Position numbers and translations under genes: made by a program | Notes under the pieces: generated by a model | What the model was told of the DNA's origin: nothing | Seen by the model: the letters and a program-made list of their open reading frames with translations, nothing else | Database searches by the model: none | NCBI GenBank assembly: GCA_965200265.1 | Contig: OZ241357.1 | Span: forward strand, 2,519,816-2,583,815 | Reading direction: 5' to 3' | Length of the DNA: 64,000 nt | DNA from: Alphaproteobacteria bacterium | Lineage (GTDB): Bacteria; Pseudomonadota; Alphaproteobacteria; UBA2966 | Shown here: piece by piece, positions 22,887-29,794 of the stretch | Numbering within the stretch: position 1 is the first letter of the stretch | How the letters are laid out: every line of letters starts with the position of its first letter

Positions 22887-25358
22887 ATGAAACGAACCGT
22901 CCGAGTTGCGGGGATCTTCGCGGCGGTGCTGGCGTGCTCCATCGCCGCCGGGTGCGGAGGAGGCGGCGGCGGGGCCGGCCCGCAGCAGGCGTCGCGTCAA
23001 CCGGCACCGGAACCGGAGACCACGGAGACCGAAGCGGAACGGGCCGCGCGGGAAGAGGCCGCCCGGCAGGCGGAGGCGGAGCGCGCGGCCCAGGAAGAAG
23101 AGATGCAGCGGCGGCAAATGGAGGAGGACCAGCGAAGGGCGCGCGAGGCGGCACTCCAGCAGGAGCTGGAACGCATAGACAGACTGGACCTGACCGTGAA
23201 CCTGTCGGCGGTCGGCGTCCGCGAGGCTCACAAGAACGTCGTCCGCGCGAGCGGCGGCCCCGTGCCCTTCGGCGCCGACATCACCATCGGCTTCATCGAC
23301 ACCGGCATCGAGCCGACGCACCCCGCGTTCGCCCCCGGCGCCCGGACCGTGACCGAGGAGCCACTGGAAACAGGAGCGGGCGATCCGGCCAGCAGTTTCA
23401 CGCCCCCCGAAAGATCCCCGCCCGGAGGGTCCTCCCACGGGACGGCGGTCGCCAGCGTCGCCGCCGGTGCGGCCCGCAACGTGATTATCGAGTCGCGTAC
23501 CGAGTCGCGGCAAGGCGTGGCCCCCGGCGCGAACGTCAGGATGTTCGCGATCACGCTGGGTTCGGGGGGGGGGGACTACCAGGAAGTGACCTTGGCCGGC
23601 CTGGAGCGCTTTTCACGGAGATTCGGAGGCTTTCTGAGCCACGCCCTCTCCCAAGACGTCGATGTCCTGAACATGAGCCTCAGCGTCTCCGGAATCATCG
23701 ATCATTATTCGGAGGCGGACCTGCAAGGCCGCATGACGGCGCTCGTCAGCGCGGCGGCGCAGGAGGCAAAAGCCGAGAACAAGACGATCCTCGTCTGGTC
23801 CGCCGGCAACCTGCACGGCGACCCTTGTATGAGCGGGCAGGCTTGCGATACCGGGACCAGAAAAGTCGATGCCCGGTCGGTGACCGTATCCGCCGGGCTC
23901 CCGCTGCGTTTTCCGGAGGAGTTGCGCGGCCACTGGATCGCCGTGGCGGCGGTGGACGACGCCGGCGTCATCGCCAGCTTCTCCAACCGCTGCGGGAGCG
24001 CCGCCGGATTCTGCATCGCAGCTCCCGGAGTGGGCGTCCCGACCGCCTATTACGGGTATCACGATCCCAGCGGCGGCGTCGTCATCGGCGAGGGCAGGGG
24101 CAGCGGAACGTCGTTCGCCGCGCCTACGGTGGCGGGCGGCCTCGCGCTCATGAAGCAGCTCTTCCGCGGCCAGCTGTCCAGCGAGGCGCTGGTCGCGCGG
24201 CTGTTCACGACCGCCAACAGGGACGGCCGCTACGCCGACCGGAGCGTCTACGGCCAGGGGCTGATGGACCTCGGCGCGGCGACGGCGCCGGTGGGCGCGA
24301 TGACGGTCGCCGGCGGCGCCTCGGTCGCGGGCGGCGGCGCCAACCTGCGGGAGACCGGCCTCGCGCTCGGGCCGGCGTTCGGCGACGGGCTCGCGGCGGC
24401 GCTGACGGGGCGGGAGATCGCCGCCTTCGATTCGCTGGGCGCGCCGTTCTGGTTCGACCTCGGCGGCCTCGTCGCCGTCACGGACCCCTCCCCCCCTCTC
24501 CTCCTGGCTCGCCGACTCCGCGCGCTGACGGCGCCGGCCGCGCGCCGCTCCGCTTCGGCGCCGGGCTGGACGGCGCTGACCTTCGATGCCGGCGGCGCCG
24601 GGACCGCCGGCGCCGGAGGCCCGCGGATGGGCCTTCTCGGGGCCGGAACGGACGCGCCGCCGGCCGGCCACCTCGCGCTCGCCGACGGCGCCCTCGCCGC
24701 CGCCTTCGATCCCGGCGCGGGGCTCGCCGCGACCGCCTTCACCAACCGCGGCGCGGGCAACCAGCCGCCGGTCTCGGGCGGCGCGCTGTCGTGGCGTGCG
24801 GCCGGCGCGCCGGCGGGGCTCACGGCCGGCTGGCTGACGGAGAGCGCGGAGCTGCTCGGGACCGGCGCGACCGGCGCCTTCGGCAGGCTGGCGGCCGACA
24901 CGACGTTCCTCGGAGTCGACGCGAACCTGGCCGTCGGCCCCTGGGCGGTCTCCGCCACCGGCGAGATCGGGGCGGCGGCGGCGCGCAACCGGCGCGGCGG
25001 CCTCGTCGCCGGCCTCTCGCCCCTGACGACGAGCGCCTTCGCGCTCGACGCGACGCGCCGCCTCGCGGACGGAAGCTCCGTGCGCCTGACGCTGGCGCAG
25101 CCGTTGCGGGTCGAGAACGGCCGCGCGACGTTCTCCGTTCCCGTCGGCCGCACGCGAGGCGGCGCCGTCCAGCGCCGGTCGGTCGTGGCCGGCCTCGAGC
25201 CGTCGGGCCGCCAGATCGACGTCACGGCGCAATGGCGGCGGCCGTTCGCGGCGGGCGGCGACGTCGCGCTCGGAGTCGCGTGGACGCACGCCCCCGGTCA
25301 CGCGGCCGGTGCGAAGCCGGACCTCGCCGTCATGGCGGGATGGCGACTCGCCTTCTGA
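22887..25358 (+). CDS. Lipoprotein subtilisin-like (S8) serine protease with autotransporter-type C-terminal domain
   Basis: Lipobox (AVLACSIAAGC); S8 catalytic motifs IGFIDTGIEPTHPAF (Asp), GHGTAVASVAAG (His), GTSFAAPTVAGG (Ser); Ala/Gly-rich C-terminal half ending ...MAGWRLAF (aromatic C-terminus typical of OM beta-barrels); 11-nt G run at 23564-23574. Confidence 0.8.
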   Translation: MKRTVRVAGIFAAVLACSIAAGCGGGGGGAGPQQASRQPAPEPETTETEAERAAREEAARQAEAERAAQEEEMQRRQMEEDQRRAREAALQQELERIDRLDLTVNLSAVGVREAHKNVVRASGGPVPFGADITIGFIDTGIEPTHPAFAPGARTVTEEPLETGAGDPASSFTPPERSPPGGSSHGTAVASVAAGAARNVIIESRTESRQGVAPGANVRMFAITLGSGGGDYQEVTLAGLERFSRRFGGFLSHALSQDVDVLNMSLSVSGIIDHYSEADLQGRMTALVSAAAQEAKAENKTILVWSAGNLHGDPCMSGQACDTGTRKVDARSVTVSAGLPLRFPEELRGHWIAVAAVDDAGVIASFSNRCGSAAGFCIAAPGVGVPTAYYGYHDPSGGVVIGEGRGSGTSFAAPTVAGGLALMKQLFRGQLSSEALVARLFTTANRDGRYADRSVYGQGLMDLGAATAPVGAMTVAGGASVAGGGANLRETGLALGPAFGDGLAAALTGREIAAFDSLGAPFWFDLGGLVAVTDPSPPLLLARRLRALTAPAARRSASAPGWTALTFDAGGAGTAGAGGPRMGLLGAGTDAPPAGHLALADGALAAAFDPGAGLAATAFTNRGAGNQPPVSGGALSWRAAGAPAGLTAGWLTESAELLGTGATGAFGRLAADTTFLGVDANLAVGPWAVSATGEIGAAAARNRRGGLVAGLSPLTTSAFALDATRRLADGSSVRLTLAQPLRVENGRATFSVPVGRTRGGAVQRRSVVAGLEPSGRQIDVTAQWRRPFAAGGDVALGVAWTHAPGHAAGAKPDLAVMAGWRLAF

Positions 25359-25633
25359 CCGGCTCGGGCGAGAGCCAGGGCAATCGCACTTGAAAACCGG
25401 GGACGCCGTTTGCGAGCCGATTCCCCGCCAAATCGGGCAAGATGAGCGAGGCTTTGGCGTTTTCACCCTTATGTTCGCACTTTGTCTTGCTCCGAATGTC
25501 ACAAGATTCCCACGGAATTTCCAAGTGCGATTGCCCTGGGCGAGAGCGCGTTGACCGGCGCGGCGCGAGAACGTATCTTGCGAGATGGGAACCGCCCGTT
25601 CCGCCGTCGATGCTTCCCGAAGAGGGAGTTGCA

Positions 25634-26182
25634 ATGAAGCACCTGGAGATCAACTGGACCGCCGTCGCCACCGTTCTTACGGGCCTCAGCGTCGTCGTCG
25701 CCCTCGGCGCTCTTCAGTTTTTGCTGACGGAGAGCACGAACGCCCGGATCGACACCCTGCGTTCGGACGTGAACGGGGAAATCCGCACCTTGCGTTCGGA
25801 CGTGAACGGGGGAATCGGTGCCCTGCGTTCGGAGGTGGGCGAGGGAATCCGCACCCTGCGTTCGGAGGTGAGCGGGGAAATCGTCGCCCTGCGTTCGGAG
25901 GTGAGCGAGGAAATCCGCGTCCTGCGTTCGGACGTGAGCGAGGAAATCCGCACCTTGCGTTCGGAGGTGAACGGGGAAATCGGCGCGCTTCGGGAGGAAG
26001 TGACCGGCGAGATCAATTCGCTGCGGTCGAACCTGCGGGAGGAGTCCGCGTCCAATCGAGAGAGGATCAAGGAGTTCGCTCGGGCGACGGCGGCTCTCAT
26101 CATGAAGGTGAACTCCATCGAGGAGAAAATCCTGCCGGAGAGCCGCGCGGACGATGACGCACCGCCGCCCGACGGGGAGTGA
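25634..26182 (+). CDS. N-terminally membrane-anchored protein made of 11-residue tandem repeats (LRSEVxGEIxx)
   Basis: RBS AGGGAG 7 nt upstream; TM helix WTAVATVLTGLSVVVALGALQFLL then about 8 copies of RTLRSDVNGEI-like 11-mers, acidic C-terminus. Confidence 0.7.
   Translation: MKHLEINWTAVATVLTGLSVVVALGALQFLLTESTNARIDTLRSDVNGEIRTLRSDVNGGIGALRSEVGEGIRTLRSEVSGEIVALRSEVSEEIRVLRSDVSEEIRTLRSEVNGEIGALREEVTGEINSLRSNLREESASNRERIKEFARATAALIMKVNSIEEKILPESRADDDAPPPDGE
25752..26040 (+). repeat. 33-bp in-frame tandem repeat array (about 8.5 units) inside the repeat-protein gene
   Basis: Consensus unit ctgcgttcggasgtgarcggggaaatccgcacc repeated head-to-tail with point differences. Confidence 0.9.
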
Positions 26183-26264
26183 GGCGCGGCCGGCCCGGAG
26201 CGACGGGCGACGGTAGGGCCGGAGACCCCCGTCAGCGTCCTGCCCGGAAGGCCGGGACGAGCCC

Positions 26265-27200
26265 CTACCGGGCGCGCTCCCGCTCCGGCGGCGCGTACCG
26301 TTCCTCGAGCGCGGCCACCTCGTTCATCCCCATGAGGCTCAGCATCTCGTCGAAGGCGGGCAGGTCCGCCTCCATGCCGGCCCAGGTTCCCTCCTCCCTG
26401 AGACGGTCGAGGCAGCCCAGCGCCGCACGGATGGCCGACAGCAGGAGCAGGCCGGGATAGATCGCGAGCTTGAACCCGAGCGTCCCCAACTCCCCGGCGG
26501 GCAACAGCGGCGTCTTGCGGCTGGACGCCAGGTTGGCGACCTGGGGGACGCCGAAGGCGCGCCCGATCCTCGCCATCTGCCGCCTGTCCGTCGGCGCCTC
26601 GACGAACAGCATGTCGGCGCCGGCCTCCTCGTACAGGGCGGCGCGGGCGAGCGCCGCGTCGAACCCTTCCACGGCAATGGCGTCGGTGCGGGCGATGACG
26701 ACGAAATCGGGGTCCGTCCTCGCGTCCACCGCCGCCTTGACCTTGGCCACCATCTCCTCCGCCGGAACGAGCTGCTTGCCGGCGAAGTGGCCGCAGCGCT
26801 TCGGGATGACCTGGTCCTCGATGTGGACGGCGGCGACTCCGGCCCGTTCGTAGCTGCGGATCGCGCGGCGGACGTTCAACGGCCCGCCGTAGCCGTTGTC
26901 GCCATCGGCGACGACGGGCAGCCCCGAGGCATCCACGATGCGCGCCGCGTTGTCGACCATCTCCGTCATGGTCAGCAGGCCGACGTCGGGCATCCCGAGA
27001 CGCACGGCCGTCGTCCCGGCGCCGGTCATGTAGACGGCCGGGAACCCCTTGTGGGCGACGAGCCGGGCATGGAAGGGATCCGGCGCCCCCGGCGCCATGA
27101 CGACGTCCGGGCCGGCCAGCAACCGGCGAAAGGCGGCGGCGTTCGTCACGGTCCCGACCTCCCGGAAAGGCGTTCCGGCGACATGGAGCGACTTTACCAC
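26265..27200 (-). CDS. Isocitrate lyase/PEP mutase family protein (carboxyvinyl-carboxyphosphonate phosphorylmutase / 2-methylisocitrate-lyase-like)
   Basis: ICL/PEPM superfamily motifs (GAPDPFHARL, VADGDNGYG, AAVHIEDQVIPKRCGH, FVIARTDA). Confidence 0.8.
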   Translation of the reverse strand: MVKSLHVAGTPFREVGTVTNAAAFRRLLAGPDVVMAPGAPDPFHARLVAHKGFPAVYMTGAGTTAVRLGMPDVGLLTMTEMVDNAARIVDASGLPVVADGDNGYGGPLNVRRAIRSYERAGVAAVHIEDQVIPKRCGHFAGKQLVPAEEMVAKVKAAVDARTDPDFVVIARTDAIAVEGFDAALARAALYEEAGADMLFVEAPTDRRQMARIGRAFGVPQVANLASSRKTPLLPAGELGTLGFKLAIYPGLLLLSAIRAALGCLDRLREEGTWAGMEADLPAFDEMLSLMGMNEVAALEERYAPPERERAR

Positions 27201-27259
27201 CCCCGCTCCGCCCGGTAACGTTGCGTTGCCGCGCGGCGCGAAGGGGGAAGGGACGGCTC

Positions 27260-27949
27260 ATGGAACTCTCGGACAAGACCGCCCGCCGGATGTGGGAGGA
27301 GCTCAAGGCCAATCCGAAGCCGCGTTTCGGTTTCGGCAGGCGGCCGATGGTCGTGAACGTCGACGTCCAGAAGTCGTTCACGCTGGAGGATGAATACACG
27401 TCCGCCTATTCGACGCACCCCAGGCAGATCGACTACATCAACGAGATCTCCGGCATCGCCCGGTCGAAGAACCTGCCCGTCGTGTGGACCTACGTCGCCT
27501 ACATGGAGAACGCCGACGACTGCGGCGTCTGGGGAACCCGGAACGACCACGAGGACGCCCTCCAGAACGTCAAGGTCGGCTCGCGCAAGGCGGAGCTCGA
27601 CGACCGCTGCGACGTCGACCGCGGCAACGATGTCGTCATCAACAAGCGGGGCGCCTCGGCGTTCTTCCAGACGCACCTGCCCTCGCTCTGCGTGTGGTAC
27701 CGGACCGACACCGTCATCGTGACGGGCGGGTCGACCTCCGGCTGCGTGCGCGCGACGGTGGTGGACAGCCTTCAGAGCGGCTACCGCACCGTCGTCCCCG
27801 AGGAGTGCACCTCGGACCGGCACGAGAGTCCGCACTTCGCCAACCTCTACGACATGGCCGCGAAGTACGCCGACGTGATACCGGCCCGGGAGGTGATCGA
27901 CCATCTCAACGAATACGTCCCGGCGAACGACCCGGGAGGACGGTCATGA
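27260..27949 (+). CDS. Isochorismatase-family cysteine hydrolase (paralog 1)
   Basis: MVVNVDVQKSF..., catalytic-Cys region VIVTGGSTSGCVRATVVD; stop overlaps next gene start (ATGA). Confidence 0.8.
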   Translation: MELSDKTARRMWEELKANPKPRFGFGRRPMVVNVDVQKSFTLEDEYTSAYSTHPRQIDYINEISGIARSKNLPVVWTYVAYMENADDCGVWGTRNDHEDALQNVKVGSRKAELDDRCDVDRGNDVVINKRGASAFFQTHLPSLCVWYRTDTVIVTGGSTSGCVRATVVDSLQSGYRTVVPEECTSDRHESPHFANLYDMAAKYADVIPAREVIDHLNEYVPANDPGGRS

Positions 27950-28866
27950 CGGTCAGCGACCCCGGCATCTACGCGTACTCGCCGTACAACGACCGGCCCC
28001 GGATCACGTGGCCGGACGGCGCCCGCGTCGCCTTCTGGGTGGCGCCCAACATCGAGTTCTACGAGGCCCGTCCGCCCGCCAACCCGGTTCGCCAAGACAT
28101 GTCGAGGCCGGCGCCCGACGTCGTCTTCTACGCGCACCGCGACTACGGCAACCGGGTCGGCGTCTGGCGCATGATGGAGGCGATGGACCGTTACGGCGTG
28201 CGCGGCAGCGTGTCCCTCAACGTGGCCGTCTGCGACCATCATCCCGAGATCATCGAGGCGTGCGTCGAGCGCGGCTGGGAGCTGTTCTCCCACGGCGTCT
28301 ACAACACCCGCTACCAGTACGGCATGAGCGAGGCGCAGCACCGCGCGCTCATCGAGGACGCGATCGAGACCATCGACAGGGCGTCCGGCCAGAAGCTGGC
28401 CGGCTGGCTGTCGCCGGCGCTGAGCAACACGGAACGGACGCTCGACCTGCTGGCGGAGTACGGGGTGCTGTACACCTGCGATCTCTTCCACGACGACCAG
28501 CCGCAACCCGTCAAGGTCAGGCAGGGCCGGCTGATCAGCATCCCCTACTCGCTGGAGATGAACGACATCGTGGTCTACCACCAGATCAACTCGAGCCCGC
28601 CGCGCCAGTACACCGAGGTGATCAAGCGGCAGTTCGACCAGCTCTACGAGGAAGGGGCGGAGAACGGCACCGTCATGTGCATCCCGCTGCATCCGTTCCT
28701 CGTCGGCCAGCCGCACCGGGTCGGTCCGTTCGCCGAGGCGCTCGAATACATCACCGGCCACGACGGCGTCTGGGTGACGACGGGACGCGAGATCGCCGAG
28801 TACTACCTCGAACACCACTACGACGACGTCGTCGCGGCCCAGTCCGCCGCCACCGCCGGGGAGTGA
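27946..28866 (+). CDS. Polysaccharide deacetylase (NodB-homology/PuuE-like) family protein (paralog 1)
   Basis: VAFWVAPNIEFYE...HRDYGNRVGVWR...SHGVYN motifs of CE4/PuuE-like fold; 306 aa. Confidence 0.8.
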   Translation: MTVSDPGIYAYSPYNDRPRITWPDGARVAFWVAPNIEFYEARPPANPVRQDMSRPAPDVVFYAHRDYGNRVGVWRMMEAMDRYGVRGSVSLNVAVCDHHPEIIEACVERGWELFSHGVYNTRYQYGMSEAQHRALIEDAIETIDRASGQKLAGWLSPALSNTERTLDLLAEYGVLYTCDLFHDDQPQPVKVRQGRLISIPYSLEMNDIVVYHQINSSPPRQYTEVIKRQFDQLYEEGAENGTVMCIPLHPFLVGQPHRVGPFAEALEYITGHDGVWVTTGREIAEYYLEHHYDDVVAAQSAATAGE

Positions 28867-28870
28867 CGCC

Positions 28871-29794
28871 ATGAGCCTGCCCGACGATTACCTCGAGTAC
28901 CCGATCCGCGGCTACGGGATGGACCACGACCGCTACGGCTGGGAGATCCTGTTCCGCAGGACGCCCGTCGAATGGCCGGGCGGCGCGCGCGTGGCGTTGT
29001 GGATCACGCCGCTGCTGCAATGGTTCCCGATGGACATGGAGACCGGGCCGGTGGCGCCGCCCGGCGGATTCAACCGGCCCTATCCCGACTACCGGAACTA
29101 CTCCCACCGCGACTACGGCCTGCGCGTCGGCGTCTTCCGCTTCTTCAGGCTCTTCGACGCGCTCGGGATCAAGGCGTCGGCGGCGCTGAACTCCGCCGTC
29201 GGCGAGCGCTACCCGGTCGTCGTCGACGAGATCAACCGGCGCGGCTGGGAGGTCATCGCCCACGGCGTGCACATGGGCCACGTGAGCCACGGGGGCATGG
29301 ACGAGAAACTGGAGGCCGGGCGCGTCGAAAGCTGCATCCGGTCGCTGCGCGAGACCACGGGCCAGCCGGTCCGGGGCTGGCTGTCCATCGGCAAGTCCGA
29401 ATCGGACAACACCCCCGACCTTCTGGCCGCGAACGGGATCGAGTATCAGTGCGACTGGTGCAACGACGACATGCCGTACCGCTTCGCGACCGGGAACGGC
29501 GATCTCTTCGCCATGCCCCACACGGTCGAGCTCGACGACCGGGAGGTGCTGCTGCGCTTCCATCACCGCGAGGCGGAGTTCGTGCAGCAGATCAAGGACC
29601 AGTTCGACGTGCTCCACGCCGAGGCCGAGCGGTACGGCGGGCGGATCCTGTCGATCGCCCTGCATCCGTGGGTCATGGGACACCCCTACCGGATCCGTTA
29701 TCTCCGGGAGGCCCTGGAATACGTCCTCGGACACGACGGCGTCTGGCCCGCGACGGGGGCGGAGATCCTCGACGCCTGCAAGGCGCAGGCGTAG
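28871..29794 (+). CDS. Polysaccharide deacetylase (NodB-homology/PuuE-like) family protein (paralog 2)
   Basis: VALWITPLLQWF...HRDYGLRVGVFR...AHGVHMGHV; 307 aa, paralogous to the preceding gene. Confidence 0.8.
   Translation: MSLPDDYLEYPIRGYGMDHDRYGWEILFRRTPVEWPGGARVALWITPLLQWFPMDMETGPVAPPGGFNRPYPDYRNYSHRDYGLRVGVFRFFRLFDALGIKASAALNSAVGERYPVVVDEINRRGWEVIAHGVHMGHVSHGGMDEKLEAGRVESCIRSLRETTGQPVRGWLSIGKSESDNTPDLLAANGIEYQCDWCNDDMPYRFATGNGDLFAMPHTVELDDREVLLRFHHREAEFVQQIKDQFDVLHAEAERYGGRILSIALHPWVMGHPYRIRYLREALEYVLGHDGVWPATGAEILDACKAQA

Follow-up and report, generated by a model that had tools for sequence, protein, structure and literature searches.

A near-perfect 33-bp tandem repeat encodes a predicted hendecad coiled-coil stalk in a small membrane protein of one uncultured alphaproteobacterial lineage

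What kind of protein is encoded by an array of nearly identical 33-bp units that runs in frame through a small bacterial gene? We addressed this question for a 64,000-nucleotide stretch of an alphaproteobacterial genome (contig OZ241357.1; hereafter the window), in which a coding sequence of 182 amino acids plus stop (25634..26182, plus strand; ATG at 25634, stop codon at 26180-26182) carries such an array. With moderate confidence, we interpret the product as a small bitopic membrane protein whose repeats would form a parallel homo-oligomeric hendecad coiled-coil stalk that may act as a length-adjustable spacer. An initial annotation, made from the DNA letters, had likened the repeats to amphipathic, right-handed-coil or lipid-surface-binding helices such as those of apolipoproteins, late embryogenesis abundant (LEA) proteins and synucleins.

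Tandem Repeats Finder (TRF) located a 33-bp period at 25753-25981 (score 304; 6.9 copies with 84% matches and 0% indels), and a further row with a 99-bp period prolongs the array to 26043. The identity of the DNA to itself at a lag of 33 nucleotides amounts to 0.78, compared with 0.30 ± 0.03 and a maximum of 0.395 in 2,000 codon shuffles; a lag-33 identity above 0.6 occurs at no other place in the window. We rejected a true superperiod of 99 bp (33 amino acids), since the identities at lags of 33, 66 and 99 are equal (0.78, 0.77 and 0.79). At the protein level, nine units anchored on L-R-[S/E] follow one another at a spacing of exactly 11 (amino acids 41-139), so that TRF, the unit table and the register analysis delimit a hendecad array of nine 11-residue units at 25754..26050 on the plus strand. 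The approximately 8.5 DNA-level units counted initially hold as an array, but only about seven of them (units 1-7, 25754-25984) are near-identical in DNA, while units 8 and 9 are diverged.

The array is one of several modules, all read from the plus strand. The chain begins with a short tail, MKHLEIN (25634..25654; MKR... in orthologues), that contains 1-2 Lys/Arg and is followed by a single transmembrane (TM) helix or signal anchor (residues 8-31, 25655..25726). This segment was identified by hydropathy, with a best 19-residue Kyte-Doolittle window of 2.09 inside the uncharged residues 6-32, and is kept in all copies. A juxtamembrane linker, TESTNARID (25727..25753), leads into the array; in paralogues, this site is occupied by a 21-bp mini-repeat (7 residues, SLTGSMV) of 2 to 2.7 copies, the range over the relatives as a whole being 1 to 2.7. 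Behind the array, the register table reveals a polar break, REESASNRER, without core residues (residues 135-144, 26036..26065), which from its composition could be a hinge between the rod and a distal module. The latter comprises three canonical heptads (I145, F148, A152, L155, V159, I162 and I166; 26066..26134), whose 3-4-3-4 spacing can be read straight from the sequence, and the protein ends in an acidic, proline-containing tail, PESRADDDAPPPDGE (26135..26179; residues 168-182, net charge -5). A monomer run of AlphaFold2 (AF2) on a 3-sequence alignment predicted one uninterrupted helix from residue 8 to 166 with a mean predicted local distance difference test score (pLDDT) of 88, rising to 90-98 in the array, and a disordered tail (pLDDT 51-56) without secondary structure. 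A Foldseek comparison of this model with the PDB returned a best E value of 9.8, the query being a single long helix and thus uninformative. An in-frame coding array, one N-terminal TM helix and an acidic tail had all been proposed before, and all were confirmed.

What periodicity do the repeats follow? The hydrophobic moment has a sharp maximum at 3.667 residues per turn (1.00 versus 0.23 at 3.5), which bears out the 11/3 periodicity suggested in the initial annotation. In hendecad register, the unit reads a = I, b = R/G, c = T/A/V, d = L, e = R, f = S, g = D/E, h = V, i = N/S/G, j = G/E and k = E. The apolar stripe thus occupies three of 11 positions (a, d and h), all of them bulky aliphatics, and on an 11/3 wheel Leu, Val and Ile lie between -65 and 0 degrees, with Glu at -98 degrees and Arg at +33 degrees. 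Five of the 11 codons, those of positions a, d, e, f and h, are identical in all seven core units of the window, and they remain nearly invariant over 24 near-identical units from four genes, with one V/M exchange at h and one R/H exchange at e; this supports the recent expansion that had been postulated for the array. The nonsynonymous variant events are found at surface positions (b, c, g, i, j and k) in 12 of 14 cases (binomial P = 0.016). We make no claim of positive selection among the units: pN/pS ranges from 2 to 3.5, but only about 17 independent events are available, and the share of nonsynonymous ones (14 of 17) is not significant (P = 0.38). The 11-residue periodicity, the apolar a, d and h positions, the indels that keep the register and the continuous AF2 helix are, taken together, the sequence features of a hendecad coiled coil.

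This register is also kept in the relatives of the gene, which we found on three metagenome contigs (L001 and L002/L003) and on a complete chromosome of 3.67 Mb from an uncultured alphaproteobacterium (L004, OZ251449.1), a metagenome-assembled genome. The orthologues share an N-terminal 'EINWTAV.TVLTG' module and a C-terminal 'ATAALIMKVNSIEEKILPE' module, and between these the spacing of the LRS motifs takes only the values 11, 7 or 4+7 in the five genes compared: 11 eight times in the window; 7, then 11 six times in L001; 11, 7, 11, 7, 11, 4+7 and 11 in L002; 7, 11, 7, then 11 five times in L004 copy C; and 7, 11 seven times, 7 and 11 in L004 copy D. Judged by their sequence, the 7-residue units are 11-mers minus four residues. 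Steps of only 7 or 11 keep the alpha-helical core in register and are therefore the signature of a coiled-coil core. A 4-residue insertion (a 'stutter', by which a heptad becomes a hendecad) leaves the chain helical; the insertions that beta-layers require are of 2 or 6 residues (PMC4786415). A coiled coil of the alpha/beta type, containing beta-layers, considered because the repeat of the solved structure 6h9l has KATKED, was accordingly rejected, as only 7- and 11-residue units are present. The number of repeats varies between relatives, as had been anticipated: at the DNA level, L001 has 5.0 copies, the window 6.9 and L004 copy D 7.0, those of L002 (2.7) being degenerate, and the full-length proteins measure 163-210 amino acids. 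The predicted rods comprise 119-166 residues, equivalent to 17.8-24.9 nm at 0.15 nm per residue. The nearly perfect nine-unit array and its relatives at 7/11 steps thus offer a natural series for the study of straight or right-handed coiled coils and of rod-length effects.

Based on these features, we infer oligomerisation, a trimeric state, the membrane topology and a role as spacer or tether. Each chain would consist of a 7-residue N-terminal tail, the TM helix, an uninterrupted alpha-helix of approximately 135 residues and a disordered acidic tail, and the helix would be made up of nine hendecads (core a = Ile, d = Leu, h = Val), the polar break and the three canonical heptads. Chains anchored side by side in one membrane could zip into a parallel, almost untwisted homo-oligomer, and interhelical Arg(e)-Glu(k) pairs would stabilise the bundle; in a parallel homo-oligomer, Arg and Glu flanks face each other, allowing interhelical salt bridges. 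A stalk of about 20 nm, most likely periplasmic (N-in, C-out), would then keep the heptad module and the acidic tail a fixed length away from the inner membrane. In this model, the array would grow or shrink by unequal recombination in units of 11 residues, or of 7 by way of 4-residue deletions, with the register intact, so that rods of 18-25 nm would result among the relatives and the 33-bp array would be an easily altered spacer. The protein might serve as a tether in the envelope, as a ruler or as the scaffold on which a partner binds to the distal module.

Is the repeat specific to this gene? The initial annotation regarded an 11-mer repeat of this type as unusual in bacteria, a view that does not survive an exhaustive HMMER search: 2,427 representative proteins match the repeat region at E<=1e-3, and 159 do so at E<=1e-10. 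In a survey of 153 of the matched proteins, 133 reach a lag-11 self-identity of 0.3 or more, and the majority are small prokaryotic proteins with one TM segment. Among the surveyed proteins of up to 320 amino acids, the TM segment is N-terminal in 18 and C-terminal in 41. About 19 have an interior one, mostly with a disordered N-terminal region followed by the TM segment and then the array, and 27 have none. The source names of 10 class members read 'hypothetical' throughout, plus one spurious 'ribosomal protein L29'. Thousands of representative clusters, small and with a single TM segment, thus share the repeat and are annotated as 'hypothetical' or mislabelled through sub-threshold matches to the Pfam models Apolipoprotein or CCDC90-like. 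Three giants of 1,360-3,006 amino acids (P0005-P0007) carry long arrays of the same 11-mer (TLRGDLQSNVT...), and P0006 has at its C-terminus a Peptidase_S74 chaperone-of-endosialidase domain, the mark of a viral or phage fibre. Two members found via the repeat region, P0022 (44 bits) and P0092 (36.8 bits), pass the threshold of Pfam CCDC90-like (DUF1640). About 2.4 kb downstream of P0092, on a contig (L006) from PANK22-1, the same metagenome project as the orthologues of the window gene, lies a second small CCDC90-like gene, with a Transposase_31 gene between the two. The neighbourhoods of P0092 and of class member P0008 have nothing in common.

Strict orthologues are confined to one uncultured alphaproteobacterial lineage. 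A search of 5.8 billion proteins returned two true orthologues only, both from PANK22-1; the remaining matches, P0003 and P0004, share 11-mer repeats only and have a C-terminal TM segment. A single genome in GTDB carries the gene, and no orthologues were found in JGI metagenome contigs or among the 2.9 million viral contigs of IMG/VR.

How does the protein compare with membrane-anchored stalks that are already known? Adlakha and colleagues are said to have described trimeric head-neck-stalk-anchor membrane proteins in prokaryotes and organelles. The best solved-structure match of the orthologue profile is 6h9l_A ('uncharacterized protein', 3 chains, E = 6e-4), presumably the entry of that work (Adlakha et al. 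2019, Structure 27:464). The matched segment consists of five EDIEALRKATK units and one 7-mer, and it has in common with the window protein the I-x-A-L-R...[T/V]...E 11-mer with an occasional 7-mer. The CCDC90-like family (MCUR1, CCDC90B and prokaryotic homologues), described as a transmembrane coiled-coil scaffold, comprises small membrane-anchored proteins that are mostly coiled-coil stalk, and the window protein would work much as this stalk does. The window protein scores 30.4 bits on this model (PF07798, DUF1640), below the cutoff of 33.5 (E = 4.1e-7), and matches only its stalk part (model positions 60-133 of 175). The topology is inverted: the CCDC90-like anchor is C-terminal, whereas the sole hydrophobic segment of the window protein (8-31) is N-terminal. 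The CCDC90-like proteins further have an N-terminal head domain and a beta-layer neck, whereas only seven residues precede the TM segment here, and the neck motif [aliphatic]-A-T-K-[polar]-[DE] (PMC4786415) has no counterpart, there being no ATK anywhere in the window protein. Its distal element, a short heptad module with an acidic tail, is also unlike that of the family, and homology beyond the repeat is not demonstrable.

The stalk is probably a trimer, because its relatives point in this direction (the 3-chain 6h9l, the S74-chaperone fibre with the same 11-mer and the CCDC90-like proteins) and because the core is beta-branched; beta-branched Ile and Val in the core favour the trimer. We rate the protein as an anchor-first, lineage-specific, rapidly evolving version of the membrane-anchored hendecad stalk proteins. 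In the literature, we found no paper describing N-terminally anchored hendecad-repeat proteins. Going further, the protein might belong to an 'inverted' branch, so far undescribed and with the order anchor, stalk and small distal module, of a very large and essentially unstudied prokaryotic and viral I-x-x-L-R-x-x-[V/M/T]-x-x-E hendecad class, with the array as a tunable periplasmic ruler or tether and the distal module perhaps acting together with a surface protease of the S8 family encoded upstream; we offer this as a speculation that is unlikely to hold. If it were true, gain and loss of repeats together with tandem duplication would tune the distance of the distal module. The value of the locus lies in a clean hendecad/heptad series and in a pointer to a large unstudied class, rather than in surprising biology so far shown.

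Two established families share parts of this organisation. E. coli F-type ATP synthase subunit b, the peripheral stalk, of approximately 156 amino acids, has a layout like that of the window protein, with an N-terminal TM segment and a hendecad helix. In subunit b, the long hendecad helix forms a right-handed parallel coiled coil, and function needs the pattern rather than an exact sequence (PMC6131620). Unlike the window gene, subunit b is a dimer and lacks near-identical DNA repeats, variable copy number and tandem paralogues; we obtained no Pfam match to ATP-synt_B (PF00430) at E<=1, and the window gene lies outside any atp operon. The repeat unit of the Borrelia Bdr proteins is 11 amino acids (33 bp), and their anchor is C-terminal. 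Bdr proteins form a multigene family of small inner-membrane-associated proteins with strain-variable direct repeats (about 9 versus 6 in bdrT) and a function that is unknown (PMC3303823, PMC10016077). They resemble the window gene in their population behaviour, as a multigene family with variable repeat number, but their genes are plasmid- or prophage-borne in spirochaetes and their anchor position is opposite. No Borrelia Bdr family appeared among the Pfam and NCBIfam matches, which came from general library scans and involved no direct comparison with a Bdr sequence.

Several observations weigh against a coiled-coil spacer. Only three of 11 positions are apolar, and position e, part of the core in classical hendecads, holds Arg here. 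The array of the window copy contains 11.7% Gly, more than would be expected in a stable coiled coil, and its folding could thus be marginal or conditional. These Gly residues (25754-25984) sit at positions j, k and b, and most units of L001 and L004 copy D have Glu at j; judged by composition, the Gly-rich window allele could thus encode a rod that is more flexible or only marginally stable. The C-terminal module is conserved but has no homologue of known function. The genome context gives no functional link: the gene is monocistronic and convergent with the downstream gene, and the gene contexts of class members are heterogeneous. In addition, the -35 hexamer of the candidate promoter is not conserved in orthologues, and the window protein and L002 have 2-3 Lys/Arg after the TM segment, which leaves the charge topology ambiguous.

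This last point leads to the question on which side of the membrane the stalk resides. A periplasmic rod with N-in/C-out topology appears fairly probable from the charge distribution: in L001 and in L004 copies C and D, the N-terminal tail has two Lys/Arg and the first 15 residues after the TM segment have none, MKR followed by a long hydrophobic stretch resembles a signal anchor, and the ectodomain carries a net charge of -10. The same stalk could, however, be inserted in the opposite direction (N-out, C-in), as a cytoplasmic membrane-tethered scaffold similar to CCDC90/DUF1640 or to subunit b. We consider this less likely but quite possible. It would account for the positive residues that follow the TM segment in the window protein and in L002, it fits the N-anchored class members P0008, P0027, P0076 and P0133, which are clearly positive after their TM segment, and it finds parallels in the 41 C-terminally anchored class members, which presumably keep their rod in the cytoplasm, and in the CCDC90 coiled coil, which faces the mitochondrial matrix.

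A different use of the same periodicity would be a TM-tethered amphipathic 11/3 helix that lies on a lipid or hydrophobic surface or folds on drying, similar to apolipoproteins, synuclein or group-3 LEA proteins. Tandem 11-mers and an 11/3 periodicity are indeed common to these proteins and the window protein, the best Pfam match is Apolipoprotein A1/A4/E (PF01442, E = 9e-9), apolipoproteins occur among the PDB matches, and a Gly content of 11.7% would be in keeping with folding that takes place on a surface only. The Apolipoprotein score of 35.7 bits, however, remains far below the gathering cutoff of 90, and the model responds to periodicity. P0005 reaches 156 bits on the same model, above the gathering score, in what is likely a false family assignment; as the model scores on viral fibre rods, it detects hendecad periodicity and not ancestry. 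Class-A helices in the sense of Segrest have a wide apolar face, Lys/Arg at both interfaces and Pro-punctuated 11/22-mers. The window repeat has instead a narrow aliphatic stripe of 3 of 11 positions (28% ILVMFW in the array), Arg on one flank and Glu on the opposite one, and residues 8-167 are free of Pro; it is linked to a TM anchor, and the net charge of its array, -6, is unfavourable on anionic bacterial membranes. Restriction of the indels to 7 and 11 residues is, moreover, not required for a surface helix. Neither LEA_4 (PF02987) nor synuclein (PF01387) appeared among the Pfam matches at E<=1, and the core is made of I, L and V rather than A and T; typical 11-mers are built on KTKEGV in synucleins and are of the form TAQAAKEKAGE in LEA proteins. 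We therefore regard a lipid-surface helix, favoured in the initial annotation, as the weaker and a rather improbable explanation, and the eye-catching reading as a bacterial apolipoprotein falls away. A warning for annotation follows, namely that the Pfam models Apolipoprotein and CCDC90-like respond to hendecad periodicity, even in viral fibres, and that matches to them should not be taken for homology.

Could the protein be an envelope-spanning part of a lysis, fusion or defence system? In size and architecture, it resembles the phage i-spanin Rz, whose N-terminal TM helix is followed by a periplasmic coiled coil that meets a partner in the outer membrane, and scans against Pfam, NCBIfam, PADLOC and PHROG, which yielded only sub-threshold or coiled-coil-bias matches, included weak PHROG matches to an Rz-like spanin (4e-4, 7e-6) and to two phage families whose function is unknown (2e-10, 4e-11) as well as PADLOC matches to ZorA (2.8e-5), whose tail would provide another model. 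All of these lie in the repeat region only, and the spanin match (phrog_7686, E = 4e-4) has 0 passing stretches. Together with weak NCBIfam and PDB matches to Rz-like spanin and Lpp, they reflect a likeness at the coiled-coil level, that is, an analogy. No holin, endolysin, o-spanin or other phage genes lie nearby, no orthologue occurs in the viral contigs, and the flanking chromosomal genes are syntenic in relatives, all of which renders a phage or defence part very improbable. Rod length is functionally important in Lpp and TolA; compared with Rz, Lpp and TolA, the window protein and its locus lack a lysis cassette, a lipobox and TolA domain III.

Finally, a spurious open reading frame over a minisatellite or a collapsed-repeat assembly artefact is the least credible explanation of all: although two of the four L004 copies are truncated, the GC content of the gene is 0.64 against a window mean of 0.68 and pN/pS among the units is at least 2, orthologue differences in the N- and C-terminal non-repeat modules fall mostly on third codon positions (dN/dS 0.3-0.5), the Shine-Dalgarno sequence and the 5' region are conserved, the frame is open in five independent assemblies, the complete L004 chromosome among them, with differing repeat numbers and always in the 7/11 register, translation of the other two frames and of the opposite strand yields low-complexity sequence rich in Arg/Gly, and the nonsynonymous excess among units lacks significance. 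The third-position bias, the conserved 5' region and the intact frames thus make an artefact or a non-coding minisatellite unlikely and, at the level of sequence comparison, establish a real gene under purifying selection outside the repeats.

How has the gene evolved within its lineage? No gene at its locus evolves faster. In the comparison of the window with L002, the neighbours share 92-95% protein identity and this gene 68%; its dN is 0.198, compared with 0.023-0.047 for the neighbours, and its dS is higher, too. The most conserved part of the protein is the heptad module, with residues 149-169 almost invariant among orthologues; for this module, the search of 5.8 billion proteins and the exhaustive HMMER scan revealed no homologue beyond the lineage. 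Two subtypes can be distinguished. Type 1 (L002 and L004 copies A and B) starts with MKRPEI... and has degenerate repeats, whereas the repeats are near-identical in type 2 (window, L001 and L004 copies C and D). The single copy beside the gene of the phosphoenolpyruvate (PEP)-mutase family is of type 2 in the window and of type 1 in L002, with flanks that are about 91% identical. The subtype swap and the raised dS suggest a paralogue replacement or gene conversion.

The window holds a single copy of the gene, and L004 (5400-8700) holds four in tandem behind an orthologous S8 gene (83-92% nucleotide identity to the window). Two of these are full-length (181 and 210 amino acids) and two are truncated (104 and 83 amino acids), the 104-residue copy being cut by an inserted segment and the 83-residue copy at a repetitive extragenic palindrome (REP)-like element; a PIN-domain gene follows. 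REP-like palindromes (CTCCTCCCCCATAACAGGGGGGAGG) lie between the copies at L004 6774-6844, 6947-7017 and 7800-7870 and also in the flanks of L001, and such elements may mediate the duplications and truncations.

The duplicated unit includes the upstream region. About 95 nucleotides 5' of the ATG, Shine-Dalgarno sequence included, can be aligned in all seven copies with a mean column identity of 82%, and in L004 a repeat family (D2) begins 94 nucleotides 5' of all four ATGs; we annotate this segment (25540..25633, plus strand) from the alignment as a conserved 5' region, taken to contain promoter and 5' untranslated region (UTR), that was co-duplicated with each gene copy. Farther upstream, the copies diverge and carry an indel, and coding is not conserved there, which excludes a longer open reading frame starting at 25442. 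The ribosome binding site AGGGAG, previously judged as good, was found at 25623-25628, spaced 5 nucleotides from the ATG. A sigma-70-like promoter match (TTGACC, 17-nucleotide spacer, TATCTT; 25551..25579, plus strand) is the sole promoter-like site in 25200-26400, with 0.0 expected from shuffles; it is tentative because the -35 hexamer is not kept in orthologues. A by-eye search of the upstream region did not detect an EcfG-type promoter (GGAAC-N16-17-CGTT).

A small hairpin, CUUCC-GAAGA-GGGAG (25614..25628, plus strand), is predicted from the window and the seven-copy alignment to pair with the Shine-Dalgarno sequence. Its 5-bp stem, for the seven copies given as CUCCC-N5-GGGAG, occurs at the same position in all of them, with no compensatory changes, and the fold of the whole UTR has a z-score of -1.76. 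A regulatory hairpin that sequesters the Shine-Dalgarno sequence was therefore rejected, being conserved but without covariation and with this modest z-score. Downstream of the gene, a pattern scan gave no terminator and the 3' intergenic region folds no better than shuffles (z = +0.26). Rfam models had no match in the whole window, and no tRNAs were found either.

Upstream of the gene lies a coding sequence at 22887-25358 (plus strand) with a Peptidase_S8 match (134.6 bits) and a lipoprotein-like N-terminus (...AVLACSIAAGC). The gene ends in ...AGWRLAF, which resembles the C-terminus of outer-membrane proteins. Of the earlier label 'S8 autotransporter protease', the S8 peptidase stands, while the C-terminal 319 amino acids gave no Pfam autotransporter match at E<=0.01. 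The adjacency to the S8 gene is kept in the window and in L004, the two loci with a visible upstream side, and constitutes a lead for function but not evidence. On the other side, a cassette at 26265-29794 contains a gene of the PEP-mutase/isocitrate-lyase family (minus strand), an isochorismatase gene and two polysaccharide-deacetylase-like genes, the last of which has no Pfam match at E<=1e-5. This cassette is syntenic in L002/L003, with approximately 91% nucleotide identity.

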